DNA of 53,241 nucleotides from a virus (lineage: Duplodnaviria; Caudoviricetes). The position numbers were made by a program, and so were the translations under genes. The DNA lies in IMG/VR virus record IMGVR_UViG_3300024331_000030, positions 1 through 53,241 of that record; one strand, given 5' to 3'. Positions 34,228-53,241 of this stretch are shown in pieces. Below the pieces are notes generated by a model. It worked only from the letters and a program-made list of their open reading frames with translations. It was not told the DNA's origin and did no database searches. Numbering within the stretch: the stretch's first letter is position 1; every line of letters begins with the position of its first letter.

Positions 34228-34233
34228 TGTGAT

Positions 34234-35801: not shown

Positions 35802-35827
35802 TTGTACCAACTCTAGAGTCTCTATCA

Positions 35828-36772: not shown

Positions 36773-36775
36773 ATG

Positions 36776-37433: not shown

Positions 37434-37611
37434 GTGATTTTATTTTATTGATTGTTATTTGCATCTTTTTCTTTATCCTCTTAATTCTACATAAACAAAG
37501 AAGAATGCGAAAGAAAGTTATAAGCCAAAGTATGGCTACGATAACCCAAGCTATCTTTAGCACTACTTCAATAGGGTCTGTAGAATGTACTATTCGTTGG
37601 ACTATATTCAT
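37417..37611 (-). CDS. Small single-TM membrane protein
   Basis: Hydrophobic helix followed by a basic tail. Confidence 0.6.
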   Translation of the reverse strand: MNIVQRIVHSTDPIEVVLKIAWVIVAILWLITFFRILLCLCRIKRIKKKMQITINKIKSHDTPH

Positions 37612-38540
37612 AGGTCTATTTCATTACGAAATCCGACGTATATTGGACTTCTTGGTTTGATTTTCTGCCCAAAGGGTTTGTGCTTTATCACTATAGTCTT
37701 TCCTAAGAAGGCTTCTCTATCCCACCAAATATCTGCTCGTCTCCCATCTGTCAACCCTACACCTGTACCCACTCTTACTTCTATACCATTCTCTAGTCTA
37801 CAGATGAAAGCTCCTAGTGTACCTTTGCCTATAAGTTTAGATTGACAACTGCTTCTATCCATCTTACCCACCGCATTTCTCTTAATACTATTCCCATTGT
37901 ACATCTGTTCCTCAAAGCCTATGATGGTACATTCTGTTCTTATGAAGCGAGCTAACTTAACTAGGTATTGTTCCTTGAGGGTTGAACGGCCTTGTTTGTA
38001 GGGTGAGTCAGGTAGGCGGAAACAAATGCCTTCGCCTTCTTGTTGTTCACACTGCTTGAAATAGTTTAATAGTTCTTCTGGTGCATAACATATCCATGTA
38101 CCATCATACTTAACATCTGCCCAATCTAGATTAATCTCTTGTAGTATATAGCTTAGTCTTGCGCTATAAACTCTTATATGCTTATCAGTATCACCAAAGA
38201 ACCAATCCAACACATGAAACTCTATCTCACCCTCACGCTCATGACTCTCCGACATAACTATAGATTCCACTTCATCATACGATAAGTGTGGTGCCCATAG
38301 TTCCATATCGAAACCATAAGGGAGTTTCATGCTCCTCATCCTTATACTCACATTAGGTATAAGGTTTAGAGTGCGGGAGCGTAGGTCGTCTAGTCTTATG
38401 GCTCGTATGCCATCCTTCTTAAGAGACGCTAAGACAGGATACTTTAACTTCCCCATCGCCTGTAAGATAGACTCATCTGTGTGTGGGTCGTTAGGCTTGA
38501 GAAGGGAGGCAGCAAGCATCGGAGACTTGAAAGGTGTCAT
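37608..38540 (-). CDS. lig: ATP-dependent DNA ligase
   Basis: KKDGIR motif I, FHVLD, EGICFR, YKQGRS, VGTG, RSPIY. Confidence 0.93.
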   Translation of the reverse strand: MTPFKSPMLAASLLKPNDPHTDESILQAMGKLKYPVLASLKKDGIRAIRLDDLRSRTLNLIPNVSIRMRSMKLPYGFDMELWAPHLSYDEVESIVMSESHEREGEIEFHVLDWFFGDTDKHIRVYSARLSYILQEINLDWADVKYDGTWICYAPEELLNYFKQCEQQEGEGICFRLPDSPYKQGRSTLKEQYLVKLARFIRTECTIIGFEEQMYNGNSIKRNAVGKMDRSSCQSKLIGKGTLGAFICRLENGIEVRVGTGVGLTDGRRADIWWDREAFLGKTIVIKHKPFGQKIKPRSPIYVGFRNEIDL

Positions 38541-38676
38541 AAATTAATAGATATACAACGGTTCCAATTCCAGATTCTAAAGTAGAAATGTATGTTATGC
38601 TCACCTTTGTATAACTGAAAGCCTAATATCTCTCTTATTATACTCTTACCTTCACCTACCCTATAGATTGCTATCT

Positions 38677-41010
38677 TCATTCTTCCTCTCCTTCTTCTAA
38701 GTCATCAGGACTAGATTCTTCTGGCAAAGTATCTATATACTTTTGCGCCGTAGAAGTATCATCACTAGTCACCATCTGACTCCAAGATTCTTTATGTTTA
38801 ACTATCTTCGACAAACACCTAAGACCTCTATTCGCAATGTCCGCAACTCTCGATTCTATCGTTCCGTTGTAGAATATGAGACGTTGGACTGTCTTAGATA
38901 GAGATGTAAGTCGCGGGACCCGGCCTACACCTTGTACTAGTTCTATGGGAGACCAAGTAGGGCAGCCTAAGACCTCCCGTTCCCTCACAGGTACTAGAGG
39001 AATATCTTCTTCAACTGCATAACCCGACTCTTTCCGGCGGCATTTAAACTTAGTCAGTTCATCGGAATGGTGAAGTGATAGACCAACACCACCAGCCTTA
39101 AGAGTGTAAAAGCAATAGAGACTATCACCTCGCTGAAACTTATCTATCTCTAGTTGACGAGCCTCAGGAGTTTGTATACCTAGACGTAGATACTCTGGTA
39201 TATCCATTATCTCTCTATCTTCCACATCATCTAAGTCTACTGTCTCTAAGAGTTCCTCTTGAGTCATCCCTAGAGCATCTAGTTGCTCCTGTGTCATCCC
39301 CATTATCTTCTTCTTCTGCTTCTGTGCTTTAGTAAGTTGAGTCTGACCACCGCCCCATATGATAGAGATTTTCTCGCGAGGTACTCCATACTTCTCTACT
39401 AGAAGTTGAACAGTTTTAATGATAGAGTTCTTAAAGGAGAAGAAGCAAACAGCAGCCTTATTCTTCTCCTCAACAATCTTATACATTTCATCAGCTATAT
39501 GACCTGACCTCATTAGTTCAGCCTTCATGCGGAAGATAAGAAACTGAACTAAAATCTCTAGACCATTACCTTTGCCGGTCATTGCAGCTTCTGACTCTGC
39601 TTTAGCCTTCTTCTCTAGATAGTCCTCCCACGCCTTCATGTACTCCCGCTTCTCCTCAGCAGTCTTAAAGTTAATACGTTCAATAGAGTTGACAGCCTCG
39701 AACTGAGGACGTACACCTTTGACACGAACTACATACTCCTCCAAGTCAGACATGAGACGTTCACAAGCTGCTTCATTATATTCCTCAGGAGAAGAAGGAT
39801 AAGCTATAGCTTTAGCATAAGAGGGCCAAGTCTCATTAGTTAGGATAGTACCTTCTGGAAAAGCTGTACGTTTACCATTGATATAATCTAGTGATTTCCC
39901 AGTAGCAACAGCAAAACACTTAGCCTCTATGACTTTAGTAAAGGGAGTCGCGGAGACAAAAGCTTGCTTAGGTCTCACACGCAAAGGCATATCGTTAAGA
40001 GCGCAAGCTATCTGGTGTTGTTGACTACCAGCATTCTTGAGGACTTGACACTCATCCCATGGTATGAAAGCTGGTTGAATACCTTTCTTCCATATCCATT
40101 TAGTTACCTCTTCTCCTTCATCTAGTGTTACTTCCTCTTTCAACCAATACTGTCCAGCTCTAGACCTCAGCATCTCTATGTTAATAACTTCACACATATC
40201 GACATCAATGTTGAAAGCATTCTTGAGGACGCGGGAAGTCTGTGTAACTATGGAAGCTTTAGTTACATAGACATAAGGTATATGGGAAAATGTCCTACCT
40301 TCATGAAACTCTGTGTCTATAAAGTGCCGTATCAAGTCCCCTACAATACCAGTCTTACCAGTTCCGGTTCCCGCAAGAATCATGACTACGGGTTTATCTT
40401 TAAGTATCTCTATAGCTTCTGAGACAGCCTTCTTCTGGTGCCAGAAAGGATGCCAGTCTTTGGAGATATTAGGAGAGCGGGTGTATAGATAATCGTTATC
40501 GGCTGTACGCTCTAGCTTGGAAGGCGTTACTGATTTAAGGACTCGCGGCAAGTCAGTGACAATAGTGTCTCTAACTTCTCGCTTGTTGGACTCTCCAGAC
40601 TCTCTATCATTGCACTCTTGAATCTTATCCAAAGCCTTTGTCGCAAGAGATACTCCGTTGACCTCTTGACTAGCTTGAGACGGCACTTCCCTGACGGCTT
40701 GAATATCCGTACTTTGTAGTGTGGTGTTATTTTCATAGAGTGGTTTCTTAGATGATTCTTCTATCTCTTTTTCTAGCTTGTCTTTTAGACTAGCCAAAAA
40801 GTCTTTTAGTTGAGGAAATGTTAGCTCACCTTGCTTATCGGCAAATTTAGTGTTACGGTATTCTTGACTGTACCCTAACTTACTTAAGACGCCATTCCAG
40901 TCTCTACTTATACTACCAAAATTCCAAGCAGACAAGACACTATTATGATGTTCTGTCTGTTGGTCTCTAAGAGTCTTCTGTCTCTTTTGTTCTAGAGTTA
41001 GTTTGGCCAT
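38677..41010 (-). CDS. SF2 helicase, Strawberry-notch-like
   Basis: GTGTGKT, DECQ, SATP, AGGVGLSLH, WSPIELVQGVGRVPR. Confidence 0.85.
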   Translation of the reverse strand: MAKLTLEQKRQKTLRDQQTEHHNSVLSAWNFGSISRDWNGVLSKLGYSQEYRNTKFADKQGELTFPQLKDFLASLKDKLEKEIEESSKKPLYENNTTLQSTDIQAVREVPSQASQEVNGVSLATKALDKIQECNDRESGESNKREVRDTIVTDLPRVLKSVTPSKLERTADNDYLYTRSPNISKDWHPFWHQKKAVSEAIEILKDKPVVMILAGTGTGKTGIVGDLIRHFIDTEFHEGRTFSHIPYVYVTKASIVTQTSRVLKNAFNIDVDMCEVINIEMLRSRAGQYWLKEEVTLDEGEEVTKWIWKKGIQPAFIPWDECQVLKNAGSQQHQIACALNDMPLRVRPKQAFVSATPFTKVIEAKCFAVATGKSLDYINGKRTAFPEGTILTNETWPSYAKAIAYPSSPEEYNEAACERLMSDLEEYVVRVKGVRPQFEAVNSIERINFKTAEEKREYMKAWEDYLEKKAKAESEAAMTGKGNGLEILVQFLIFRMKAELMRSGHIADEMYKIVEEKNKAAVCFFSFKNSIIKTVQLLVEKYGVPREKISIIWGGGQTQLTKAQKQKKKIMGMTQEQLDALGMTQEELLETVDLDDVEDREIMDIPEYLRLGIQTPEARQLEIDKFQRGDSLYCFYTLKAGGVGLSLHHSDELTKFKCRRKESGYAVEEDIPLVPVREREVLGCPTWSPIELVQGVGRVPRLTSLSKTVQRLIFYNGTIESRVADIANRGLRCLSKIVKHKESWSQMVTSDDTSTAQKYIDTLPEESSPDDLEEGEEE

Positions 41011-41012
41011 AC

Positions 41013-41195
41013 TTATACCTTAGTCTTACGAAACTTAAAATAGATATTAGGCCAGTCATATAGATTCCAATAAGTAACAGGATTCCACACTTTAGTATAA
41101 CCATATCTAAAGTTATCTTTGTAAGTGAACTCTATTGGAATACCACTATCAAATAACTTCTTCCATTTGTCTAAAGTTCTCTTTGAATTTTTCAT
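41013..41195 (-). CDS. Hypothetical protein
   Basis: Packed ORF. Confidence 0.55.
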   Translation of the reverse strand: MKNSKRTLDKWKKLFDSGIPIEFTYKDNFRYGYTKVWNPVTYWNLYDWPNIYFKFRKTKV

Positions 41196-41641
41196 TTCAA
41201 CTCCTCCTCTTTTGTTACAAGTTTAGGCATTCTCTCAGGACATATAGCTCTTATGTTCCCGAACTTCTTCTTAGAGACAAGAGCATAAGCTGTACTCCTC
41301 GCCGGGTCTTCTGGAAATTGTAGTTCTTGCATAATGAATCGTGTAACTATCTTCACGTTAGCCTCCAGTATCCATCTCGCTATACGTTCTTTCTCAGAAC
41401 GGTCTTTCTGTAACTTCCAATTAGTACTACTATTGTACCAAAGAGGATAGTCCCACAGCTTAGGAGACTCTAAAGGAGAACCATCCCAATCTGTAAACTG
41501 GACTCTATACTCTGTCCCCTTGTTGAAGTGTTGAGCTAATATCTCTCCGGTCTCTTGGTCTGGGAGGTCTCGAATACCTTTCAACTCTTTACCTAGAGTT
41601 AGTTCGAGGAAGGCTTGAAGGGAGACTGTAATGGTTTTCAT
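41192..41641 (-). CDS. Hypothetical protein
   Basis: Packed ORF. Confidence 0.65.
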   Translation of the reverse strand: MKTITVSLQAFLELTLGKELKGIRDLPDQETGEILAQHFNKGTEYRVQFTDWDGSPLESPKLWDYPLWYNSSTNWKLQKDRSEKERIARWILEANVKIVTRFIMQELQFPEDPARSTAYALVSKKKFGNIRAICPERMPKLVTKEEELK

Positions 41642-41659
41642 GTATTGTGATTTAAATAC

Positions 41660-41757
41660 TTAAGTCAGTAGTCATGGTGGAGTCGAACTCACTAGGCTCG
41701 ATAATAACACCTTATCAAGACAGATACCACTACTGTCATACATGACTACTGACTTAA
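41660..41757 (-). ncRNA. tRNA-like RNA with a 17-bp closing stem
   Basis: TTAAGTCAGTAGTCATG/CATGACTACTGACTTAA encloses a D-like arm (GACAG-TAGTGGTAT-CTGTC), an 8-bp arm and a GTTCGACTC T-loop. Confidence 0.7.
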
Positions 41758-41807
41758 ATACACATACTATAACTGGTATGTGAGCAGTTGAGGAACCAAT
41801 CTACAAC

Positions 41808-42416
41808 TTACGCCGCACTCGGAGCAGGAGTAGACTTCGAGGGAGAGGCAGCTTCCTTAGCAGCCTTAGCAGCAGCACGCTTAGCAGCAGCAGCCAAGTG
41901 CTTCTTCTCCAATTCACTATACTGCAACTTGAGAGGTTTAATCTTCTTCTGGACAGCCTTCATCTGTTCAGTGAGACGGATATAGTCTTCAGGGAACTTC
42001 GGCTGACCGGTCGCATCATCAGTCTCATATTTGTCATCCATGACAATCGTCTGAGCTTGGTCAACCAAGTCACCAATCTGTTCCTGCAAGTCACCCATCG
42101 TGGCAGCGCCGGACTCAAAATCAGCCCATGCGGAGATGACTCCATCCATGTCAGTGATACCAGTCGTCTTGTCAGTCTCTTCGACCCAAATGTCCATACC
42201 AACACGACGAAGGAAACGGGTGAGGATAGTGTTGACTGTGCTATCACCCATGAACTTACGACCATTCTCCTGGTTGGAAGCATCAACTTCCAAAGTCCAG
42301 AACTCTTGTCCTTTACGGTCAGAAGTCTTGCCGAATTTAGTGAGACTCAAAGGCAACGACACTTCATTGCGAGAGACTACAGGTGGATTTTCTTTAGTGT
42401 ATGTAACAGTACTCAT
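41808..42416 (-). CDS. Probably abundant hypothetical protein with coiled coil and Ala/Lys tail
   Basis: High-expression-type codons; first large gene after the promoter at 42689. Confidence 0.75.
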   Translation of the reverse strand: MSTVTYTKENPPVVSRNEVSLPLSLTKFGKTSDRKGQEFWTLEVDASNQENGRKFMGDSTVNTILTRFLRRVGMDIWVEETDKTTGITDMDGVISAWADFESGAATMGDLQEQIGDLVDQAQTIVMDDKYETDDATGQPKFPEDYIRLTEQMKAVQKKIKPLKLQYSELEKKHLAAAAKRAAAKAAKEAASPSKSTPAPSAA

Positions 42417-42688
42417 ATGTTTGATTTGTTTATCTACTTAACGAGATATTCTCTTTGTTGATGGTGTCTCGTATTCTAGTTCACCATTTAACCCATCTAT
42501 AGTGTGGGTGAAATTAACGACGAAATATAAGAATATATAAAACACAAACATAACAATAGCTAATGCTACTAGTTGGTGTTTAATACCCTGTGTATTACAA
42601 TAAATGTCATTGAGACAATGTGATTTGGGCGTCTGTCATAAGTAATTAGTTTGTGTAAGAGTGATTTACTAATTGTCCTTGTTGCCCT

Positions 42689-42706
42689 TAGCAATTTCCA
42701 TGCCAA
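42689..42706 (-). promoter_or_regulatory. sigma54 promoter
   Basis: TTGGCATGGAAATTGCTA. Confidence 0.9.
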
Positions 42707-42741
42707 GTGTTGTATTAGGTAGTTATATAGCTTAGAGAAGA

Positions 42742-43482
42742 CTAGTCTTTACTGCCTTTCATAGCGGCTGTGATGGCGGTGCGCCAAGTTTTCTGACTGG
42801 CTGCTGTTGATGGATTAAACTTGAAGTGTTCATAAATATGGACTGTTCTGTGTTTATCCATATAATCCAACCTTTCTTTATCCTCCACTAATCCCGCCGC
42901 ATGTTTGGTAAGGATTTGTTTTATTTGTTCTAAGTCTTCTGTTGAAAATGCTATAGGTATCTCATGCTCAATCTCCTCACTCGCCTCCTTAATCCAGTCG
43001 GGTGAGGTGGGAATAGTAACAACCTGTGATTTTCTGCGTGTTGTATCACGCAGGTAATTATCATTTAAACGAACAGTAGAGCAACCGTCTGCGTGACCGT
43101 TCATTTCACCACATATAGAGCATTGTTTCATAGTAGGTGGGGTGGGAGGAGTGGCGCGGGTGTTCCATCGTTGAACTAGATTTATATCTGGATTAGTGCC
43201 ATCAGTTGAAAAGGAGCGATACATGTTCGCTCCACATTTAATACAGGCAATGAATCGTCCGGTATAATTGGGATGGAAGCCTTGATTTGCAGGTTGTGAG
43301 GCTTCTCCGCCACAAAACGGACACGGCATCAATGCTTGTTCTTTGTTGGTGGGCGCAAGTTCTGGTGCGTCCGTGGGCATAAAACACTGCTTACACATCC
43401 ACCCATCACCATCAGGTGCTTGAATAATATCAGCATTACAACAAGTAGATTTCATAGGCATTAATTTGGTTTCTGGGGGCAT
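42742..43482 (-). CDS. Mosaic zinc-finger protein containing a Lar (restriction alleviation)-like domain
   Basis: LMPCPFCGG...IACIKCGA...WNTR; further CC..CxxC and CxxC..H..C units. Confidence 0.72.
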   Translation of the reverse strand: MPPETKLMPMKSTCCNADIIQAPDGDGWMCKQCFMPTDAPELAPTNKEQALMPCPFCGGEASQPANQGFHPNYTGRFIACIKCGANMYRSFSTDGTNPDINLVQRWNTRATPPTPPTMKQCSICGEMNGHADGCSTVRLNDNYLRDTTRRKSQVVTIPTSPDWIKEASEEIEHEIPIAFSTEDLEQIKQILTKHAAGLVEDKERLDYMDKHRTVHIYEHFKFNPSTAASQKTWRTAITAAMKGSKD

Positions 43483-43487
43483 GGTGG

Positions 43488-43673
43488 CTATTCAGTTTTA
43501 ATTGCTTCGATTGCTGCTTTGTTTCTACTCTCGATGCGCTCAATGGCCTTTCGTGCGCTCGCTATAGCTTCTTTTTGGTTTGGTAGCAGAGTTGGCGTCA
43601 ATTCAATGCCTTTCAACACTCCGCTTATTGTGCCTATGTCATAAGCATTTTCCGCTAAATCACACATTTTCAT
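43488..43673 (-). CDS. Hypothetical protein
   Basis: Packed ORF. Confidence 0.55.
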   Translation of the reverse strand: MKMCDLAENAYDIGTISGVLKGIELTPTLLPNQKEAIASARKAIERIESRNKAAIEAIKTE

Positions 43674-43713
43674 TTGTCAATCCTTTCTTCGTTGGTTTGT
43701 TTCTGGGGACATG

Positions 43714-43893
43714 TTAGTTCTTAGTTATTTGCCAGATGATTGGAAAGCACGGTATCAGGCAAAGATAAAACGTGCGACGTTGCCAAGTTCCAATTCTGAA
43801 TCCTTCGCTTACTTTGCCTTTCTCGCCGACCTTGATTTCAGTCTTCCAATATAAGCCAATCCAACAATTCTGAGGCACAAATTTAACCTTCAT
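43714..43893 (-). CDS. Hypothetical protein (start 43893)
   Basis: MKVKFVPQNCWIGLYW...YLCLIPCFPI. Confidence 0.6.
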   Translation of the reverse strand: MKVKFVPQNCWIGLYWKTEIKVGEKGKVSEGFRIGTWQRRTFYLCLIPCFPIIWQITKN

Positions 43894-43894
43894 A

Positions 43895-44467
43895 TCACTT
43901 CCCTTGGTTGAGTTGGTTGGTGGAGAAATGCTGGCAATTCTTTTTATGCTCAATAAACCAAAGCCAAGCACTTACTGGTAAATGAGAATCTTGTCGTTCG
44001 CATGAGGAACATATTTGACATAACAGTTCTTCCTTTTTCCTATTCTCCTCCAAAATCCGTTGGCCGGAGGTGGAGTTGTTTATGGCTTTGAATAAAGCAT
44101 CTTCATTGTGTGCCGATAGTCTTACTATGGTGCCATGAACTTCATCGTCTTTATGGTACAAAATAGTGTTCAACGCCTCATTCTTTTCCGCACACGCAGC
44201 TTCGAGGGTGGTGAGTTGGGATTGGAGATGTTGAATCTGTTGTTTTAAATTCCAGACAATATCTTCTTTGGTATTCTTGTCTTGCTCCAACTCCTCCACC
44301 CTCTCAAGCAATGGTTGGGTGGCTATGAGTTCACGTTCGAGAGTGGTAGCATGATTTACCATTTCTTCATAAACTTTAAAAAGTTTGACAGGAAATGGCA
44401 GTTTGCTTATTTTTGCGTCCGTCCTCCGTGTCGCAATCTCCTCAATCTTTTGTTGGGTGGGTGTCAT
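43895..44467 (-). CDS. Coiled-coil hypothetical protein
   Basis: Heptad-rich ORF. Confidence 0.65.
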   Translation of the reverse strand: MTPTQQKIEEIATRRTDAKISKLPFPVKLFKVYEEMVNHATTLERELIATQPLLERVEELEQDKNTKEDIVWNLKQQIQHLQSQLTTLEAACAEKNEALNTILYHKDDEVHGTIVRLSAHNEDALFKAINNSTSGQRILEENRKKEELLCQICSSCERQDSHLPVSAWLWFIEHKKNCQHFSTNQLNQGK

Positions 44468-44474
44468 AGCTTTC

Positions 44475-44735
44475 TCAAAGAGTTGTTTTCTGGTTACGGG
44501 CGGAGAGGATGGCTTTCTTGTAAATACCAGCAGTTGAAAACAACAGACTAGTACCTAAAGAACGTGATTCAGGGTTAGCATTGACAGTAGATTCGTTATA
44601 ACCTATCTCCGCCGCCTCAGTCATTCCGGTTTTGAAAGCGTCGAGTTGGATTAATGATATTGTTTCAGTTAAAGCAACATCAGGGCATTGATACGCCAGT
44701 GCAAGTCGTTCTAAAGCTTCTTTTGGTGTTAACAT
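44475..44735 (-). CDS. Hypothetical protein
   Basis: IQLDAFKTGMTEAAEI...AILSAR. Confidence 0.6.
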   Translation of the reverse strand: MLTPKEALERLALAYQCPDVALTETISLIQLDAFKTGMTEAAEIGYNESTVNANPESRSLGTSLLFSTAGIYKKAILSARNQKTTL

Positions 44736-44745
44736 AAATCAAAAA

Positions 44746-44847
44746 TTTGCCGGACATAGACAGGATTTGAACCTATAATAGTTAACTATACTTAGCAGAT
44801 GCTAGTGAAAGTATTATGTTTCACATTCCGCCACTACATCCGGCAAA
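44746..44847 (-). ncRNA. tRNA-Leu/Ser-derived RNA with extended acceptor and remodelled anticodon arm
   Basis: TGGCGGAATG D-arm start; ATAGG-TTCAAAT-CCTGT T-arm; 14-bp closing stem. Confidence 0.65.
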
Positions 44848-44852
44848 AGGAA

Positions 44853-44956
44853 TGATGGGTTAGTAACATTTTATTAGTTTCGTCATCAGGAAATATATTT
44901 ATCGAGTTCGCTATAAGATTGCTACACTCTATCCTTACACGGTTACCAACCCATCA
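44853..44956 (-). ncRNA. Structured RNA with a 15-bp closing stem
   Basis: TGATGGGTTGGTAAC/GTTACTAACCCATCA, with a G-U pair only on the - strand. Confidence 0.55.
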
Positions 44957-44987
44957 AAATTAAATGTCCGAGTTACGCTTATCGGAC

Positions 44988-45076
44988 TGGTTGCCGCGTT
45001 GGAATTGAACCAACTTCTAATATTGAACTAAGCTAGCCGTTCAACATCCGCAGTCACCATGACTACCATAACGGCA
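44988..45076 (-). ncRNA. CCA-ended tRNA-like RNA with elongated D and anticodon arms
   Basis: TGCCGT/GCGGCA+A+CCA; GTTGG-TTCAATT-CCAAC T-arm; 7-bp D stem; 10-bp stem with a 10-nt loop. Confidence 0.7.
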
Positions 45077-45082
45077 TTAAAC

Positions 45083-45206
45083 TGTAGCTCCCGCCACCGA
45101 TTCGAACGGTGGATTGACCAGACTATCGTAGTTGTATACGGTGCAAATAAGGTCATTACTTTTGCATATGTTTCGTCAGTAGCGTCTACCATTCCGCCAC
45201 GGGAGC
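45083..45206 (-). ncRNA. tRNA-Leu/Ser-derived RNA with a large structured insert replacing the anticodon loop
   Basis: GCTCCCG/CGGGAGC acceptor; TGGCGGAATGGTAGACGC D arm; CACCG-TTCGAAT-CGGTG T arm. Confidence 0.75.
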
Positions 45207-45481
45207 ATTAAATTTACTTCCTATACGACAGACCCTTCATCACTAGAACAAAGCATACAGACAGTATCAGTAAATCTGTAAGACATGTGTTGTGGAAATG
45301 GCGGACTGTGAGCCAATCGATAGAGTAGTGAGCCATATAGTTAATTATTAATAAACGTCCAATACAACACAAAACCTTTCTTCTTGACCCACTGATAAGC
45401 TGACATGTAGCCTTCTGTATCTTTGACAAAGGCTAAATGGACTCTAGGTGTCATGTGTTGGAGGTAGAGCATAAAATTAAA

Positions 45482-45665
45482 GATAGTTAGTGAAGCAGGA
45501 ACCGACCTGTTGTTTATCACTTGGCTAAGTGGGTTACTCTAGGTTCTCGAAACCTACACCTGCACATGAGTGATTACTAGGACTGCACTTCGGGTAACCC
45601 GACGCTCCCTTTGTAAGGTACTATCTTTTATCCTTCTCACTATCAGCCGCCACTCACTAACTATC
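45482..45665 (-). ncRNA. 184-nt multibranch structured RNA
   Basis: 12-bp perfect closing stem GATAGTTAGTGA/TCACTAACTATC plus several internal hairpins. Confidence 0.6.
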
Positions 45666-45991
45666 AAAATTTAACGTCTAATGACTAGATGGACATATAG
45701 TCACACTAGTTTGCCATTAGACGGAGCGTCTGTTATGCGCTCAGAAATTATAAGTAGTAGATTGCCTCTTTAAAACTGACTAAAGAGTTAATTGTTTTAA
45801 GGTCTCTAGATAACCTCTACTACTTCTTACACAATAAACTGGTTCATATCCTCCACAGAGGAGTCCTCTTTTCTTTTCAGGTGAGTGTTTAACCTATCAT
45901 TGTGTAAATCATGAAGGTTATTAACATAGTCAGAATTCTACTGGCAAAGTATTTCTACTTTAGAGGGGAACATTATATATTAATAACCAAA

Positions 45992-46066
45992 TGGTTGACT
46001 CTGTTGGACTCGAACCAACACTCAACGGCTTATGAAGCCGTAGCTTCACCTTTAAGCTAAGAGTCA
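45992..46066 (-). tRNA. tRNA with CAT anticodon (elongator Met or Ile2)
   Basis: TGACTCT/AGAGTCA acceptor; ACGGC-TTCATAA-GCCGT; GTTGG-TTCGAGT-CCAAC; encoded CCA. Confidence 0.92.
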
Positions 46067-46175
46067 GTAAATTGGTGCCCATTTCTCTACTTAAAGAACT
46101 TAGTATTCTAGTGTTTAACCAGATACCCGGATGGCAAAGAAAGCACAGTAGTATGTTTCTACTGATATTCTTACT

Positions 46176-46193
46176 TAGCATTTCTCATGCCAA
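46176..46193 (-). promoter_or_regulatory. sigma54 promoter for the tRNA/ncRNA array
   Basis: TTGGCATGAGAAATGCTA. Confidence 0.9.
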
Positions 46194-46227
46194 GTTGTAT
46201 TAGTGTATAGTAAAGTCTCTAAAGGAA

Positions 46228-46446
46228 CTACTTCTTAAATGCCGAAGGAAAACGATAGCGAGCTTCCGCTTTTGTGAGACGATTACACTCTTCCATTTCA
46301 TGTTTATCAAATAAAGCAGGATACCATTCTGAAGTATCTATATCGCAGAACATACCTTCATTAGGCTTATCAAGTTCAAAACGATAAAGACGAGTGTGAT
46401 TTGATATATCCTTAGTGTAATACCAATGTGTTCTTGCTTGGGGCAT
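46228..46446 (-). CDS. Hypothetical protein
   Basis: 72-aa ORF in the early arm. Confidence 0.55.
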   Translation of the reverse strand: MPQARTHWYYTKDISNHTRLYRFELDKPNEGMFCDIDTSEWYPALFDKHEMEECNRLTKAEARYRFPSAFKK

Positions 46447-46746
46447 AATAGTTCTTAGTGTTAATGGTTGTTATAGGTTTGAAAGGGCCGGCTCTTAATC
46501 AGCCTGTTGTTCTGTCTCCTTGATATGAACACGAATCTTACCAAAAGCGTTGAGTCTTTGTTCTTCTCGCAAACACCATTCTAACAAAGATTTGTCAAAT
46601 GCTTCTTTGGTCATAGGATGACTGGTGTAAAATCAAAGATACTACGTTTCTTATGGAGAGGGTTTATAGCACACATAATGTTTGTAGAGTCAACTAGTCT
46701 TGTTCTCCTCCGCGCTTCGCGCTCCGGGGCCTTATTATCCGTATGG

Positions 46747-46923
46747 TCAATTGGTGAAAGATGGATGGTTGAATATACGTTCTAAAGGAACTAAAGCTCT
46801 ACCCTGCGGCTTCTTACCTTGTGACTTAGCCGCTCGACGAGAGACTATGGGTCTTGCTGTTCGAGAGGAGAAGTGTCTTGCGGCCGAATAAGCTGAGAGA
46901 CGTTTGAATTCTTGGGGGGTCAT
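46747..46923 (-). CDS. 58-aa basic protein (not in the ORF track)
   Basis: MTPQEFKRLSAYSAARHFSSRTAR...; abuts the upstream ORF. Confidence 0.5.
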   Translation of the reverse strand: MTPQEFKRLSAYSAARHFSSRTARPIVSRRAAKSQGKKPQGRALVPLERIFNHPSFTN

Positions 46924-46924
46924 A

Positions 46925-47080
46925 TCATTTCCAAATTCTTATTTTGTGAGTTAAACTACCACAAGCCATATGTTTACCTTTGTGTCCTTTTTTTCTGGTA
47001 CACATATAATTATCTTGTATAGCTGGACAATCACTTTTTCTACCTCCACATCCTGTACATTTGTTTTTAGGTTTAGTCAT
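46925..47080 (-). CDS. 51-aa Cys/His-rich protein (not in the ORF track)
   Basis: MTKPKNKCTGCGG...CPA...CTRKKGHKGKHMAC. Confidence 0.55.
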   Translation of the reverse strand: MTKPKNKCTGCGGRKSDCPAIQDNYMCTRKKGHKGKHMACGSLTHKIRIWK

Positions 47081-47426
47081 AAACACCAACTACCACAGAG
47101 ATTGATATAACTACAGGTAAGAGGTAGTGTTGGAAGGAAGGTCTAATGGTAATTGGTGTTTAGGGCTAATATGCACTCTGCATTGATTTACAGGCTTGTG
47201 ACTGTTGATAACTATCAGTAAACACAGAGGTATATTATGTGAAGTGATTAGAGACACACAACATACTCTTAATGTATTTCAATCTATACTCTCGATTGCC
47301 TAGAACATACGGAGTTCTGTGCTTACTGGGCAGTTATCAGCTGCATTGCATATTAACACTTAACCACCGATAAACCCCTCACTCATTGTTGTCTAGCGTG
47401 AGGAACAACATTTAGGATGATTAAAA

Positions 47427-47572
47427 TAGAACTATCAACTGACCTATTTCAACATCCTTTTGTAAAGGTGCTAGTTGAACATGCGTTTCAGTCCTATCGG
47501 GTTGCCTCCTTATACATATTGAGTTGCGACCTCCATCACCTACAGTATTAGGTGCTATGGTTGATAGTTCTA
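47427..47572 (-). ncRNA. 146-nt multibranch structured RNA
   Basis: 13-bp closing stem TAGAACTATCAAC/GTTGATAGTTCTA with three internal arms. Confidence 0.55.
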
Positions 47573-47886
47573 GTCTAACCACCCTATGCGTCAACCCTTA
47601 CTAATTATCGTTTTCGCACGGTGGTACGGAAAGAAGTTGTATATTACTCATTGACCTGTTATCTTGGGAGTAACACTCAATTCTTGCGAAATGAGGAAAT
47701 TAGTCATCTTTTCACACTATTGCTAGTATGTAAGTTTCTACTCTACCAAGTTTGCGTCAGCTATACATTTAACTGCCATACATAATCTTGCATGGACTTC
47801 ATTACCTAGCAGAGCTAAAGTCTCATAGTCTGGCTATAATAGCGGTGTCATTGACTAATTTAGCTTTTAGGTTGTACAAGTAGTCT

Positions 47887-47904
47887 TAGCATAAATCATG
47901 CCAA
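47887..47904 (-). promoter_or_regulatory. sigma54 promoter
   Basis: TTGGCATGATTTATGCTA. Confidence 0.88.
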
Positions 47905-48125
47905 TGTTATCTACTGTATAAGCCTTGTACTACTGGACTATTGCTATCTATGAGTGTGCGGGTACTGTTGCTTTAAGAGCCGCTCGACAGACTAATCTAG
48001 AAACATTCGCTTAAAGACTAGTTAGCCTTACTTAACATCCCGATGCATTAGGTGCTGTACTGTTGAGAGAAAATGTCCCTTAGAGTGGAGTCTTGCTCTA
48101 ACACTCTAAGGGCGTGAGACTGTGC

Positions 48126-48533
48126 TTATTCCTTCACTGACAGAGTATCAACCCACTTCTGCAAGTCTTCCCGCAAAACCCATTTGGTTTTGCCGAACGA
48201 GACTTCATTCTTACCCGCGTCACCGGCCCATTGGATTGCCCTGACGACTGCCAAAGGGTTAGTCATGGTGACTCCCTTTGCTTTGCTGGCATCCGCAATG
48301 GTAACTTTACCATTCTCCCCCGCCTTACCAATTTTCATGGTGGCGGAGACGTTGCGGAAAGCCGCACCAGCGTCACTACCAGCTTGCTTGGCAATCTTTT
48401 CCGCTTTGGCTGGTTCAATGCCAAAGATGCTCTGACACGCATCATAGATGCGTTGCATCTCCGCACTGTATCGGCCATTGCCAAAGTTGGGCTTGGTTGA
48501 TACTTCAGTTGTGTTTTCAAGTGTCGCGTTCAT
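48126..48533 (-). CDS. First early gene, hypothetical protein
   Basis: 135 aa; followed by the hairpin CCCTTAGAGTG/CACTCTAAGGG. Confidence 0.75.
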   Translation of the reverse strand: MNATLENTTEVSTKPNFGNGRYSAEMQRIYDACQSIFGIEPAKAEKIAKQAGSDAGAAFRNVSATMKIGKAGENGKVTIADASKAKGVTMTNPLAVVRAIQWAGDAGKNEVSFGKTKWVLREDLQKWVDTLSVKE

Positions 48534-48741
48534 GTTTGTTCAGTACTGTATGGAGTTACTAGCTAGGCGTTGTGCCTAACCGTTTTGTGAACACTTAGAG
48601 CGTCCACAAAATTGTGAGTCTGACAAACTATTGGCGTGACACAGACAGGTCACTAGTGATACACTAGTGTCTTGGCAAAGCGTAACCTGTTGGCTACACC
48701 GCCTTACCTACCAGCACAGAGTCAAAGAACTACCAGACACT

Positions 48742-48758
48742 TAGCATCCCTCATGCCA
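48742..48758 (-). promoter_or_regulatory. sigma54 promoter (first early promoter)
   Basis: TGGCATGAGGGATGCTA. Confidence 0.85.
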
Positions 48759-48773
48759 TGCCAATGAAAGGTG

Positions 48774-48798
48774 TAAGATGTTGATAATCAACATATTG
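48774..48798. promoter_or_regulatory. Back-to-back IHF consensus sites
   Basis: TATCAACATCTTA (-) and AATCAACATATTG (+), both WATCAA-N4-TTR. Confidence 0.7.
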
Positions 48799-48871
48799 TA
48801 GATTGTCTGTTTGGAGTGACAGTGTAAGGTAATCAGACAACTATCCTAGGAAAATCGGCCTTTAGGCCAGT

Positions 48872-48896
48872 TAACTAATTGATACTCAACAACTTA
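48872..48896. promoter_or_regulatory. Second back-to-back IHF-like pair
   Basis: TATCAATTAGTTA (-, perfect) and ACTCAACAACTTA (+, one mismatch). Confidence 0.6.
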
Positions 48897-49142
48897 CAAA
48901 GACTGTAAGCTATCTCGACAACAGGTGGACAATTATCTACACTCTTTGCATAACACCCTACTATTCAACCACTTAATCTCACTCCACTAACTGTAAACCT
49001 TTCCAACGGTCTGAAAATCCGGCCTGCTGGCCAGTCTAAATACTTACAGCTAAGCCACTTAGCTAGACTCTAGGCTCGCTTCGCTCGTGGTACATATTAG
49101 TTACCGCTTACAATGTACATACATAGTTGACTAGTTAACTAG

Positions 49143-49160
49143 CAGCATTATCTATGCCAA
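49143..49160 (-). promoter_or_regulatory. sigma54 promoter
   Basis: TTGGCATAGATAATGCTG. Confidence 0.8.
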
Positions 49161-49165
49161 TATAG

Positions 49166-49183
49166 TTGGCACACTCTTTGCTA
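49166..49183 (+). promoter_or_regulatory. sigma54 promoter
   Basis: TTGGCACACTCTTTGCTA. Confidence 0.85.
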
Positions 49184-49185
49184 AA

Positions 49186-49202
49186 AAGCATCTATCATGC
49201 CA
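49186..49202 (-). promoter_or_regulatory. sigma54 promoter
   Basis: TGGCATGATAGATGCTT. Confidence 0.78.
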
Positions 49203-49765
49203 TCTTATTAGACTATCAGTAGATTGTATTAACATCTAATAAACCTTAAATATTAATAATTATAATATACAATCGGTAATAACCTTTATTTTATAAAAAT
49301 ATTAATAATATATATATATTACTAGTTATATTAGTTAATACAACTCCAAATAACTGGCCCCCACCGGAGGGAGGGAAAAAGCATTTTCGACCCTGTATCA
49401 GTATTAAATACAAGTATATTGTATATGTATTACGCATTATACAGGGTCTAAGTGGATGATTAATAAAGGTTAAATGAGAGACTAATAGTGTGCCAATGTG
49501 ACACTATTCTAAGTGTAGTAGTGAATCTTATAGAGTCATATTGACACACTTACTTAACTTTACTAATTATCTACAGCCCGCACCCTTTAAGAGTCATTAC
49601 TTACACTAATATCTAATGACCTACTATTAGTTTGTCTAATAGAAAGAAACCAGAAGTTAGAATGCGAAGTGGAACTATACCTCTCTTAGAACACAAGCAA
49701 TTTCAAGATTTAACCTACGTTTAATAGAACTACTAATAGGGGTCAGAAGAGTAGTCTTTAGAGGG

Positions 49766-49782
49766 TGGCATGATTCTTGCTA
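49766..49782 (+). promoter_or_regulatory. sigma54 promoter at the start of the late arm
   Basis: TGGCATGATTCTTGCTA. Confidence 0.88.
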
Positions 49783-49793
49783 GTAGAAGTAAC

Positions 49794-50072
49794 ATGAGTA
49801 GACATATTATTATAGGTAAGAGTCTCCAAGAGGCTATGATAGAGGATTTTTCTCTAGAGTATGCACAACAGAAGAAACTTCGGGATACAGAACCTAACAG
49901 TCCTCATGGTCTTAGGGCTAGCGAGAGGATGAAGGTTATATCTCAATCTATCGAGGAATTAAAGATGCAAATCAAGAATCCTGAACGTCATGCTATGATG
50001 ATTCATGGTGGATATAGTAAAGAAGAGATGGATAGGATAGAGCATTTACCGCGTAACCTTAATGGAGTCTAG
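49794..50072 (+). CDS. Hypothetical protein (start 49794, nearly leaderless)
   Basis: The ORF-track ATG at 49770 lies inside the promoter; the next ATG is about 2 nt after the predicted +1. Confidence 0.6.
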   Translation: MSRHIIIGKSLQEAMIEDFSLEYAQQKKLRDTEPNSPHGLRASERMKVISQSIEELKMQIKNPERHAMMIHGGYSKEEMDRIEHLPRNLNGV

Positions 50073-50173
50073 TATGTATATTATCAATCAATTTTGCGGA
50101 TTCTGGTTCACCCTACAAACTCCCGAACAACAGTGGCCCCCGACCCTTTTAAATTTGACTAAACTGTCTTAAG

Positions 50174-50611
50174 ATGACTAGTTCTGACGCACAACTTGTT
50201 AAAGCTTACGAAGCAGGAAGAACTCCTGATGAGATAGCTGAAGAGTTTGGTTTTTATACTCACCATGTAAAAGCCCGGCTTATGGCTATCTCTACTACTT
50301 ATCGTAAAGCTTGCGGTCAGGAACCTGAAGGTGAAGATGAAGTTAACTTTTCTAGAGATGAACAGTTAACCATAAAAAGAGAACTCTTCCAGATGGCTAT
50401 GTCTACAGAAGACCAGCATCTTAAAGCGAAACTTTTGTTAAACTTACGGGATGACGGGAAAGGTAGAAAAGATATAGTGAGGGACATGAAGAATAACGGG
50501 AACATCAATATCATGCAACTAATCAATAACTCTATCTCTCAAGCCTCTCAAAGCGCTGACCATTTAATAGCTTCTGTAGGACGTAAGACACCTAAGACAA
50601 TTGATGCCTAA
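50174..50611 (+). CDS. Terminase small subunit (putative)
   Basis: N-terminal HTH (TPDEIAEEFG); directly upstream of and overlapping TerL. Confidence 0.6.
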   Translation: MTSSDAQLVKAYEAGRTPDEIAEEFGFYTHHVKARLMAISTTYRKACGQEPEGEDEVNFSRDEQLTIKRELFQMAMSTEDQHLKAKLLLNLRDDGKGRKDIVRDMKNNGNINIMQLINNSISQASQSADHLIASVGRKTPKTIDA

Positions 50612-52544
50612 TCAACTAGACATTACTTCTTTCCGGAAACTTAGTCCTCACAGCCAAGAAGACTTCTTAGCTGATGGGGGTATTATAGTTTCTACTACCA
50701 CTGTTCCTTTGGAGAGTGTGATTTCTCTCCCTAAGGAGGGTGGCAGTGGGAGTAGTAAGGAGTTGGAGGTTGGCTTTGTTGATGTATTGCCGTTACATGT
50801 CAATATTGAGACTCCTCCAACTCCCCAACCTTCTGCGAGCGTAGCGAGCGGTTCGAGTCAACCTCAGCAAGCTGAGCAACCCGAAGTCAAGAAAGAGTAT
50901 AGTGATGAAGAGAAAGCTTTCATAGGTCAGTGGACAGAGGGGTTTGATATACCAACTCCTGTCCATCTCCTAATGATTCTCGATGATGATATAAGTTCCG
51001 GCCGCCACCACTTACACCCTTGGCAGATAGAGTTCATGCTAGATTTTGCTTATGAAGGCCACACTAAAGATAACCCCTTTTATGCGGCAGTTCAAGCAGC
51101 TAATGGTTCCGGCAAAGATAAGTATGTAGTCGCGGCTTGTGCAGTATGGTTGTGTATGAGGTACTCTAAGGCTAGAGCTGTCACAACTAATGGTTCAGGT
51201 GCTCAGTTGGACAGTCAGACAGAACACTACATCAATGACTTGTGTGAGTCTGCTAACCTTAAATGGGCGGGAGGTAAGGAACTTATATGGAAGTGTACTT
51301 ATAGGTACTATGAATGTATACCCACTAAGTCACCCATCACACTCTTTGCGACAGATGAACCTAACAAAGCGGAAGGTTATCATCCTCTCAAGGCAGGAGG
51401 TAAGATGGCCATATTCGCATCTGAAGCTAAGGCTATCCCTGATGAAATCTTTGGAGCACTCACTCGTTGTAAAGGATTCACCCACCGTATTGATGTTTCA
51501 TCTCCCGGTCTCCCTATAGGTTACTTCCACACCCAATGTACCAATAGTGTAAATCGCCGGACTTTCGATAGTATTACAGATAAGTCCCCCGGTTCTACAA
51601 TTCTCTATCATATTACAGCTTTCGATTGCTCACATATTAGTGAACAGGAAATTAAAGACTTTGCAGATAAGTGTCCATCAGGAGTTAATGACCCTCTTTA
51701 TATCTCTGGTGTTCTAGCTCAATTTACCACTACAGATGAGATGGTGGTTATACCTTATGCTTTCATCATGTGGGGTTATAAGGATGCTCCTAAGAAAGTA
51801 GAGTGGATACAAGAACCTTTCAATAAAGGTGGTCTAGACCTTTCGGATGGTGGAGCTGAGACTTGCTTAGTAGTAAGGAACGGGAACCGGCACTTGAGGA
51901 CTATACCATTTAAGTTCCAAGATACACAAGATACTATACACTTCTTGGAAGATAAGTTTGGTGAGAATGCTCTTACACATAGGGATGCTTTAGTGTTCTC
52001 TGATTGTTGTGGTATAGGTAAGCCTATGCTTGACCAACTAAAGTCTCGTGGGTGGTCGAATATGAGATATGTGGATAGTAGACATAAGAGTTCAGATAAG
52101 AAGGTCTACTTTAATAGAGGGACAGAACTCTTCTTTAATATACGCTTACTCCTAGAACGCAAAGAACTAATAGTTGAGTACGATAAACTCTTGTGTTCTC
52201 AGTTGTCCGGTCGTTATTATAAGTTGAGAGATGGTACTGTAAGACAGTTATTAACTAAACTAGAACAGAAGTCTCGTGGGTACCCTTCACCTGATAGAGC
52301 TGATGCTTTTAACTTAGCCTTCTGGGACTATAAGACTACTAGAACTTTTAAAGATTATCATGAGTCAGCTCCTTCTACTCCTGAATCTATGGTAGAGATA
52401 GTCAAACCAGTAAGTGATTTCTCCCTAAGACAGTGGGCTAGTAGTGATACTACTAATCTAGAGTCTTTTAGGAAGAATGTTAGTAAACATAAACCAATAA
52501 CCTATCTACAACGTGAGTTGGATAGGTATTTAAGAAAGAACTAA
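50604..52544 (+). CDS. terL: Terminase large subunit
   Basis: LHPWQ; AANGSGKD Walker A; GLDLSDGG, DCCGIG and SPDRADA nuclease motifs. Confidence 0.92.
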   Translation: MPNQLDITSFRKLSPHSQEDFLADGGIIVSTTTVPLESVISLPKEGGSGSSKELEVGFVDVLPLHVNIETPPTPQPSASVASGSSQPQQAEQPEVKKEYSDEEKAFIGQWTEGFDIPTPVHLLMILDDDISSGRHHLHPWQIEFMLDFAYEGHTKDNPFYAAVQAANGSGKDKYVVAACAVWLCMRYSKARAVTTNGSGAQLDSQTEHYINDLCESANLKWAGGKELIWKCTYRYYECIPTKSPITLFATDEPNKAEGYHPLKAGGKMAIFASEAKAIPDEIFGALTRCKGFTHRIDVSSPGLPIGYFHTQCTNSVNRRTFDSITDKSPGSTILYHITAFDCSHISEQEIKDFADKCPSGVNDPLYISGVLAQFTTTDEMVVIPYAFIMWGYKDAPKKVEWIQEPFNKGGLDLSDGGAETCLVVRNGNRHLRTIPFKFQDTQDTIHFLEDKFGENALTHRDALVFSDCCGIGKPMLDQLKSRGWSNMRYVDSRHKSSDKKVYFNRGTELFFNIRLLLERKELIVEYDKLLCSQLSGRYYKLRDGTVRQLLTKLEQKSRGYPSPDRADAFNLAFWDYKTTRTFKDYHESAPSTPESMVEIVKPVSDFSLRQWASSDTTNLESFRKNVSKHKPITYLQRELDRYLRKN

Positions 52545-52549
52545 AGTAT

Positions 52550-52900
52550 ATGGATAAATGTCCAATGTGTGGTTATGCAGAACAAGTGGGTGGTGTTCGA
52601 GTGAATACTATCATGAACAATTATGTCAATGAGAAAGGAGGTGTCTGCTGTCTTAATAGTGGTGAGGAGAAGATTGAGCAGAAAGATAAGGATGGTAATT
52701 ATATAGGTGTTCTCATTCGTCAAGATTTGTGGAAAGCTAAAGTTTCTATAAAAGAAGGTAAAGTAGAAGTTACTCCTACTACTTCTACTACTCCTACTAT
52801 AGTCAATCGTCTTGAGACACTTCCTTCTACTCCCGAAGTTCCCAAGACTAATCCTTTCGCCTCTGTGAAAGCTCCTACACCTCAAGAAGGGCCAATTTAA
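52550..52900 (+). CDS. Hypothetical protein (CPMCG)
   Basis: Packed ORF between TerL and portal. Confidence 0.65.
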   Translation: MDKCPMCGYAEQVGGVRVNTIMNNYVNEKGGVCCLNSGEEKIEQKDKDGNYIGVLIRQDLWKAKVSIKEGKVEVTPTTSTTPTIVNRLETLPSTPEVPKTNPFASVKAPTPQEGPI

Positions 52901-52901
52901 T

Positions 52902-53171
52902 ATGAAGAAAGATGAAGGTTCACAAGAAGAGGAAGCAGCAGAGACACCTGAGGAAGAGGCTAAAGAAGGTGTAGTTATACCTGAAGAGTTTCAACAACAA
53001 GTGCACGAACTAATTAGCAAAGCTAAAGACAAACACCACTTGAATCACATCCGTGATAGGGTATATGCTAAGGAAGATGAGTTGAGGAAGGAAGAAAGTA
53101 AAAAAGATAAGGGCTCTAAAGGTAAAGGTCCCACAGGAACTATGGAAGTAGAACCGTCTATCGAAGGTTAA
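52902..53171 (+). CDS. Charged hypothetical protein
   Basis: Packed ORF ending 1 nt before the portal ATG. Confidence 0.65.
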   Translation: MKKDEGSQEEEAAETPEEEAKEGVVIPEEFQQQVHELISKAKDKHHLNHIRDRVYAKEDELRKEESKKDKGSKGKGPTGTMEVEPSIEG

Positions 53172-53241
53172 TATGAGTAACATGAATCCTCCCACAAATA
53201 ACACTGAGTACATCAATACTCTAGACTATAAAAAGCTAGAG
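53110..53241. repeat. Terminal direct repeat, copy 2
   Basis: Matches 1-132. Confidence 0.95.

Follow-up and report, generated by a model that had tools for sequence, protein, structure and literature searches.

A palindrome-bearing control region upstream of a sigma-54-type promoter in a phage that appears to run on host sigma-54

Sigma-54 promoters that combine an enhancer with a site for integration host factor (IHF) are known from Proteobacteria, among them Pu of the TOL plasmid with XylR, nifH with NifA, glnHp2 with NtrC and pspA with PspF. An arrangement of related appearance was analysed in a phage genome from IMG/VR (IMGVR_UViG_3300024331_000030), a virus record complete at 53,241 bp and referred to here as the window, in which palindromes, repeated boxes and hairpins at 48742–49050 lie upstream of a leftward sigma-54-type promoter. 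The likeness to the proteobacterial promoters consists of −24/−12 elements, a bend-type site near −50, repeats near −100 to −180 and a AAA+ activator with a GAFTGA motif. The phage locus differs in that its bend-type site is a symmetric 29-bp palindrome occurring twice, as opposed to one asymmetric IHF site, and in its setting, a virulent-looking phage genome with a host that is probably a member of the Bacteroidota. It differs further in that the only known activator, that of the phage, has no DNA-binding domain, and in having boxes which vary among related phages. A sequence-only reading of the same stretch had proposed an enhancer-dependent sigma-54 layout with IHF sites and a host activator that starts the infection cascade. 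In sequence and position the layout was borne out, with putative bend-type sites near −54 and −152 and repeated boxes near −100 and −181, and the proposal as a whole was partly supported: its architecture holds, with IHF proper and host-activator ignition unproven, the latter being something that may reasonably be inferred. With confidence that is about evenly balanced, it is suggested that the flagged stretch would be the upstream control region of a distinct sigma-54 promoter, its parts being palindromes for a host protein, boxes and hairpin insulators.

Every motif of the sequence-only reading was found in its place when the sequence was read. The IHF consensus sites described as back-to-back and sharing one base are present at 48774 and 48872, but each pair is really one 29-bp palindrome with the consensus TGTAAGTnGTTGATnATCAACnACTTACA, which occurs in the window only at 48772–48800 and 48870–48898. 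The proximal palindrome (TGTAAGATGTTGATAATCAACATATTGTA; centre 48786, about −54) contains two overlapping IHF-consensus matches, and the distal palindrome (GTTAACTAATTGATACTCAACAACTTACA; centre 48884, about −152) has the best weight matrix score in the window, 33.7, followed by 25.8 and, at the next place, 9.4, in agreement with the claim that no other promoter has such modules. The IHF consensus WATCAANNNNTTR itself is matched exactly seven times over the 53 kb of the window, where 3.53 matches would be expected, and 4 of 100 shuffles reach seven. Three of these matches fall within 111 bp, at 48774–48786 (−), 48786–48798 (+) and 48872–48884 (−). The repetition of the arrangement 98 bp further on and the third near-match were also as described, each with a one-base miss to the consensus: at 48884–48896, the partner half of the distal pair, and at 48963–48975 (+), where ATTCAACCACTTA represents a single palindrome arm with a matrix score of 6.1. 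The palindrome pattern YAANNNNTTGANNNTCAANNNNTTR is matched without mismatch only at 48774 and 48872; with three further matches carrying two mismatches the window holds five against 1.37 expected, a number reached by none of 100 shuffles.

Between and beyond the palindromes lie two boxes of the form TGTAAG-N7-GACAAC, exact at 48823–48841 (box A, plus strand; centre about −100, the promoter strand reading GTTGTC-N7-CTTACA) and at 48904–48922 (box B, plus strand; centre about −181) and, as had been proposed, nowhere else in the window. The repeated GGCC motif of the sequence-only reading corresponds to two hairpins of one repeat family, D1, which are 76% identical over 21 nt and one inserted base apart. 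On the minus strand hairpin A (48851–48871) reads GGCC-TAAA-GGCC followed by ATTTTCC, and hairpin B (49015–49035) reads CTGGCC-AGCA-GGCCGG followed by ATTTTCA. A terminator scan flagged hairpin A as terminator-like on the minus strand (48869 to 48856), and it looks like a terminator or insulator against leftward transcripts from upstream; the same scan passed over hairpin B because of its short run of T. Beside hairpin B, at 49037–49048, stands what remains of an outer arm, CTAAATACTTACA. Since the order of palindrome, box and hairpin occurs twice and a remnant arm follows the second hairpin, the stretch has the look of a tandem duplication, now decayed, of a presumed unit of about 100–160 bp. 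Its internal repetition is far above chance: the 277 bp of 48774–49050 contain three separate families of gapped 6+6 direct repeats, against a mean of 0.01 in dinucleotide shuffles, 1% of 300 shuffles holding any. There is no ORF (open reading frame) of 40 or more amino acids on either strand in 48580–49290. Two other candidates for this stretch were rejected. The string AAAATCNGGCC is not significant as a motif (3 against 1.92), the hairpins being better described by family D1, and a small RNA running from 49134 to the hairpins folds no more stably than shuffles (z of −0.06 for 127 nt and −0.57 for 290 nt), with a single Rfam match at E up to 1 that is a chance snoRNA.

The promoter next to these elements (TGGCATGAGGGATGCT, 48743–48758, minus strand) has GG at −24 and GC at −12 with canonical spacing, and its start is predicted near 48732. 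The promoter is part of a set of 11 matches to TGGCAY-N6-TGCW in the window, against 0.21 expected, every one of which is co-oriented with the flanking genes or ORFs. Sigma-70-type promoters showed no excess, with 36 matches against 44.5 in shuffles for 34000–53241 and 4 against 6.1 for 48000–50200, and were rejected as the start of the cascade. The Bacteroidota −33/−7 type (TTTG ... TAnnTTTG) was not enriched either, with no match in any of the control regions of 11 complete genomes, namely the window and its relatives. Judged by its sequence, the phage thus appears to run on host sigma-54, all of its detectable promoters being of that type. A single sigma-54-like promoter has been reported for Pseudomonas phage YuA (PMC10914365). 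In YuA it stands among sigma-70-type and phage-specific ones. The phage described here is unlike YuA in the genome-wide spread of its 11 promoters, in the missing excess of sigma-70-type promoters and in having its own activator, and no sequence relation between the window and YuA was found. In the literature on phages and sigma-54, with subscription journals and supplements outside the coverage, no phage family was found with its own sigma-54 activator and such promoters genome-wide.

The activator, a bacterial enhancer-binding protein of 314 aa (35828–36772, minus strand), matches Pfam Sigma54_activat with an E-value of 1.7e-53 and contains GAFTGA and both Walker motifs. Its structural model (pLDDT 85.5) gave FlrC, FleQ, NtrC1 and PspF as top fold matches. 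By Pfam, sequence and model it stops directly after the AAA+ domain and is without a C-terminal DNA-binding or helix-turn-helix (HTH) domain. Its N-terminus is a moderately conserved helix-helix-hairpin of about 60–90 aa, for which there was no Pfam match at E up to 10 and, when it was modelled separately at low confidence (pLDDT 62.6), no fold match at E up to 0.001. A Pfam scan of 22 + 29 phage ORFs yielded no recognisable DNA-binding domain and no HU/IHF or HTH protein. Sigma-54 activators without a DNA-binding domain are known as FlgR in Helicobacter pylori, CtcC in Chlamydia and FleT in Cereibacter. The phage activator is like these in where it ends, and most phage promoters, lying directly behind the preceding gene, leave no room for an enhancer. 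Unlike these proteins it is phage-encoded and has its own short N-terminal domain, and one promoter class is provided with elaborate upstream sites.

Phages are expected to begin infection from strong housekeeping-type promoters or with a polymerase of their own. In this phage the activator gene lies inside sigma-54-driven operons, and some ignition step is therefore logically needed; judged by the promoter counts the ignition problem is real, with sigma-70-type and Bacteroidota-type promoters also not above chance. The starter ATPase may be a host activator, a phage activator carried in the virion or something else.

Promoter 48743 had been taken for the first early promoter. It is indeed the one nearest the first leftward gene (48126–48533, minus strand; 135 aa, no family match, 68% identical to its homologue in relative G002), but it is not the outermost, two further leftward promoters lying upstream within a group of three overlapping sigma-54-type promoters at 49144–49159 (−), 49167–49182 (+) and 49187–49202 (−). 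The flagged stretch is thus placed between tandem leftward promoters, 48743 on one side and 49144 and 49187 upstream, and transcripts from the latter two would cross it unless terminated. The promoters 49167–49182 (+) and 49187–49202 (−) make a 36-bp inverted repeat, so that the predicted start of each falls inside the other, and 49144–49159 (−) abuts this pair. Face-to-face pairs with offsets of 20–24 bp were also seen in the related metagenome loci L045 (twice) and L069. The first leftward transcript has a leader of about 200 nt (48534–48731, minus strand) with two CACTAGTG palindromes and the start-proximal motif AGTTCTTTGAC. This motif or AGTTCTTTTACAT, at about +12 to +25 and followed by a long leader, was observed in the window (48700–48732) and in L065, L090 and L112.

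IMG/VR contains 10 syntenic relatives, with protein identities of about 45–70%. Each of them encodes the activator and has between 5 and 10 strict matches to a sigma-54-type promoter. A terminase scan of metagenomes gave 107 related stretches, and 80 of them (loci L044–L123) were retained. The control region stands upstream of the terminase genes in all 11 complete genomes, and its component parts recur: the first leftward gene with a leader of 200–300 nt (where a promoter was found), a rightward promoter and, in most of the 11, one or more leftward promoters and an A+T-rich block; six of the 11 also have a match to a conserved 60-nt element before the rightward promoter.

The palindrome is present in the equivalent control region of six of the 11 complete genomes (G000, G001, G002, G004, G008 and G009). 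A weight matrix trained on seven sites finds it in the control regions of those six genomes only, along with second or third copies on which it had not been trained. Among 40 non-redundant metagenome loci, nine contain a site scoring at least 16, all outside the training set, and none of 559,669 positions outside control regions reaches that score. When centres are measured from a predicted start taken 11 nt downstream of the promoter 16-mer, a proximal group (n=8, the window and seven related phages) lies at −45, −46, −54, −54, −55, −56, −57 and −67, which suggests steps of roughly one helical turn, and a distal group comprises 14 centres at −119 to −172 with three more further out. No centre falls between −67 and −119 if the second site of G001 is measured from promoter 39054 (−143); measured from the nearer promoter 39108 it lies at −89. 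Within pairs the palindromes are spaced 85–101 bp apart.

Outside the element at 49646–49706, no non-coding alignment with relatives was obtained for the flanking DNA in 48101–50200, and the keeping of the palindromes at matching positions within unaligned DNA points to selection. The associated promoters form a class of their own, marked by G+C-rich spacers: they have four or five G+C among the six spacer bases (4/6 in promoter 48743) against a mean of 1.61 in the 79 other promoters of the 11 genomes (p 8e-6). Conservation, position and spacer class together are good evidence from sequence comparison for a function at the DNA level that would be tied to this promoter.

The boxes behave differently from the palindromes, the window form TGTAAG-N7-GACAAC having no sequence counterpart in the relatives. 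In G002 the box is truly palindromic and of another sequence, GYGCAAAnTTTGCRC; it stands at about −102, −170 and −190 and nowhere else in that genome. In locus L102 a 23-nt sequence is repeated, at about −96 and −175. Since the positions of the boxes are kept and their sequences are not, the binder would be specific to each phage or each host, and a common host activator is not indicated by boxes that differ in this way.

The palindrome was also traced in bacteria. Phage genes offer a first indication of the host, as a loose Shine-Dalgarno match precedes 8 of 38 of them, about the chance level by a rough estimate of our own; genes of this kind point to a Bacteroidota-like host, and the host is probably a member of that phylum. 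A terminase-based scan of bacterial genomes returned no relatives and hence no prophage or host clue. The exact pattern TAASNNNTTGATWATCAANNNSTTA, scanned in one genome per prokaryote species, is carried by at least 128 stretches, the composition of the matches being possibly biased. Among 80 listed titles, 57 are Bacteroidota, 13 Fibrobacterota, WOR-3 or NPL-UPA2, three Verrucomicrobiota and two unclassified, the remaining five being Chlamydiae, Helicobacter, Bacilli, Selenomonas and Deltaproteobacteria. In five Bacteroidota genomes the number of copies was 1915, 25, 23, 2 and 1. The highest figure belongs to a Microscillaceae genome (G011; at most one mismatch, against one copy of a reversed control), and the 23 copies of a Saprospiraceae genome (G012) are near-identical. 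At positions left unspecified in the search the base preferences of the bacterial sites agree with the phage consensus, with T at −8 and A at +8. Genes of the DNABII family occur in all five genomes and do not discriminate. In literature on IHF in Bacteroidetes and on the motif string, with subscription journals and supplements again outside the coverage, no description of the palindrome in Bacteroidota was found.

Because the palindrome is kept at the same distances in relatives and is common in Bacteroidota genomes, a host DNA-binding protein is probably involved and probably helps to switch on promoter 48743, and an abundant protein of this sort is the simplest reading of the palindrome from its sequence. 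From the arrangement as a whole we infer host-protein binding, DNA bending, factors at the boxes and termination at the hairpins. The 29-bp palindromes at about −54 and −152 would bind a dimeric, sequence-specific DNA-binding or bending protein of the (probably Bacteroidota) host, one with an IHF-like half-site (ATCAA-N4-TTA) and a symmetric full site, which the phages would have recruited. Two bends could then fold the DNA so that factors bound to the boxes (about −100 and −181), between and beyond the palindromes, would reach the closed sigma-54 complex and deliver or modulate its activation. The two GGCC hairpins may act as leftward terminators or insulators, shielding this assembly from transcripts started at 49144 and 49187.

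Several observations weigh against this reading. Five of the 11 complete genomes and 31 of the 40 new loci are without a site of score 16 or more, and 27 of the 40 are without one even when the cut-off is relaxed to 12, so that the element is not obligatory for the phage family. The boxes differ between phages and point to no one binder. The stretch is downstream of two further leftward promoters and may on that account be transcribed. In bacteria, none of 128 loci has a strict sigma-54 promoter within 200 bp of the palindrome and six have weak, scattered matches, and a link between bacterial palindromes and sigma-54 promoters was accordingly rejected. The bacterial sites are intergenic and clustered (four G011 loci have two to four sites each, mostly outside long ORFs), and the complementarity of their arms is modestly above expectation (0.43–0.68 against 0.30–0.51; 0.68 against 0.51 at position ±9). 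Such co-variation and clustering would also fit a hairpin repeat of the REP kind, for which no dedicated role in transcription need be assumed.

In E. coli, the repetitive extragenic palindromic (REP) elements, BIME and RIP elements are repeated extragenic palindromes with IHF sites. The bacterial palindrome resembles them as a short palindrome with an IHF-type consensus, in hundreds to thousands of often clustered intergenic copies; it differs in being found in Bacteroidota and neighbouring phyla, in its sequence and in showing no clear link to a transposase or binding protein. The core TTGATTATCAA is shared with what we take to be the FabT operator of streptococci, and the string appears in the streptococcal FabT literature. 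An ordinary winged-helix regulator could therefore read this core, a bending protein not being required. The FabT site is nonetheless shorter, lacks the TAAS/STTA outer arms and belongs to another phylum and a fatty-acid regulon, and it is not a homologue. A REP-like hairpin repeat and a winged-helix regulator are both possible alternatives for the palindrome, which as the bacterial repeat TAASNNNTTGATWATCAANNNSTTA was seen in genomes G011, G012 and G015 (loci L128–L266).

The reading originally put forward goes further than a host-protein control region: the sites would be those of IHF proper, the boxes the enhancer of a host sigma-54 activator, and promoter 48743 would ignite infection before any phage activator exists, after which the phage activator would drive the other promoters from solution. 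In this full form it is considered unlikely. Each palindrome arm does fit WATCAANNNNTTR, the positions −54, −100, −152 and −181 fit the classical layouts of Pu, nifH and pspA, and the modules stand upstream of promoter 48743 only. The model is also in keeping with an activator gene that lies behind sigma-54 promoters in a genome where neither of the other promoter types is above chance, and with a phage activator that has no C-terminal DNA-binding domain. IHF as such is nonetheless not borne out: in spite of the three exact consensus matches within 111 bp, the site is symmetric, in contrast to the asymmetric site of the proteobacterial heterodimer known from E. coli, and its carriers are mainly Bacteroidota (57 of the 80 listed), where an IHF specificity of the E. 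coli type is not established. In addition, the boxes are not common to related phages, the two leftward promoters further upstream are without such modules, and the bacterial copies do not stand beside sigma-54 promoters. A virion-carried activator or an unrecognised promoter type would solve ignition too.

Quite unlikely is also an explanation in which palindromes or boxes are operators of a phage regulator, either an unrecognised early or middle protein or the N-terminal domain of the activator, that boosts or shuts the promoter. Phage-specific boxes would be expected of co-evolving phage proteins, most early ORFs have no family match and could hide a DNA-binding protein, and the activator does possess its moderately conserved N-terminal helix-helix-hairpin. 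That domain, however, gave neither the Pfam nor the fold match described above, and it is the same in G009 and G010 (in the part readable in G009, where the gene is cut by the contig end), yet palindromes are present in G009 and absent from G010. A palindrome that stays constant across phages with proteins of such modest identity and is abundant in bacteria points instead to a host protein.

Next to the palindromes the control region contains an A+T-rich block (49230–49345) with TATATA-type repeats, which most of the 11 genomes have in their control region; it was not seen in G006, and the G002 contig ends before that point. In the window it lies about 330 bp from the nearer palindrome, and the minimum of the cumulative GC skew falls in the 1-kb bin 48001–49000 just before it. 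CTAATAG-type repeats stand to its right in several genomes. The block is a candidate replication origin. That the repeats themselves form an origin or a packaging site, with the palindromes as initiator sites, is improbable. Repeated palindromes and an A+T-rich block within a large non-coding region, at an orientation switch and at the lowest cumulative GC skew, would suit such a site, as would the block standing to the right of the palindromes in five of the six palindrome genomes (the sixth being the truncated G002) and the terminase genes about 1.5 kb to their right. It is nevertheless the distance from proximal palindrome to promoter that is tightly kept, at −45 to −67 in eight phages, and the A+T-rich block stands at a variable distance, adjoining the palindrome in G004 and about 330 bp away from it in G000; G003, G005, G007 and G010 keep the block without having palindromes, and no origin-binding protein was identified. 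Least of all is it to be expected that the palindromes are copies of a selfish host repeat, REP-like or of the miniature inverted-repeat transposable element type, which landed in the phage non-coding region and have no role: the copy numbers in the Microscillaceae and Saprospiraceae genomes, the intergenic, clustered placement and the modest co-variation of the arms would be in its favour, but positions are kept relative to one promoter class across phages with unaligned flanking DNA, and no clear link to a REP-associated transposase was seen, with three weak Y1_Tnp matches in G011 and 30 in G012, none of the latter adjoining palindromes.

Elsewhere in the control region, the element at 49646–49706 (AAACCAGAA...GAACTATACCTCTCT), about 60–120 nt upstream of the rightward promoter 49766, shares about 76–82% identity with relatives and contains the invariant blocks CCAGAA, GAACTAT and TCT. 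It was rejected as an RNA element, as no consensus structure emerged from eight sequences. It may be a protein-binding site that serves either as enhancer of the rightward promoter or in packaging, the latter option being raised by the terminase genes that follow. A 15-mer, GTTGTATTAACTAAT, occurs twice, at 35828–35842, in the last bases of the activator gene a short way upstream of promoter 35785, and at 49331–49345 beside the A+T-rich block. Its core TAATACAAC, at 42709 and 46194, directly adjoins the −24 elements of two promoters, 42690 and 46177, and the sequence may represent a second regulatory motif. A tRNA-Met gene (45992–46066, minus strand) lies about 100 nt downstream of the sigma-54-type promoter 46177–46192, which would be unusual as its driver.

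With regard to the genome as a whole, the non-coding region of 1.2 kb (48534–49769) separates a leftward block, running from 48533 down to 25819 and containing replication and early genes, from rightward genes that include a 647-aa protein (50601–52544), taken as the large terminase on account of a Walker A motif and nuclease-type motifs in the alignment. Large rightward ORFs spanning 64–25659 have no family match and are taken as structural genes from their size and position. A PHROGs scan of 24 proteins matched the activator and, weakly, a 1571-aa protein, with no others, and this near-blank result implies that catalogued phage families contain essentially no relatives of the putative structural module. 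Two ORFs share the family A DNA polymerase, with an exonuclease part at 28977–30566 and a polymerase part at 27714–28823, and an HNH endonuclease gene (27247–27723) lies directly downstream of the latter. No GenBank phage gave a DNA match to the window; the matches to the activator protein under GenBank phage records are all apparently bacterial genes, and none covers 80% of the activator.

The phage belongs to a widespread family, with 10 complete relatives and 107 metagenome stretches, that seems to depend on host sigma-54 for its whole programme. This raises the sharp question of what fires the first promoter of a sigma-54-only phage. One promoter class has been pinned down with conserved, position-constrained upstream sites, and it is linked to a palindrome that is very strongly amplified in some Bacteroidota genomes. 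It is conceivable, though doubtful at present, that the palindrome is the site of an undescribed architectural protein of Bacteroidota, a symmetric-site counterpart of IHF, and that two phased copies of it, with a host sigma-54 activator at the boxes, serve this family of phages from soil and water as an ignition switch, the phage activator then taking over all other sigma-54 promoters. If so, infection would start only when the host activator is active. The ignition of a sigma-54-only phage, the gating of infection by a host signal and the Bacteroidota protein that reads an abundant palindrome are now testable.

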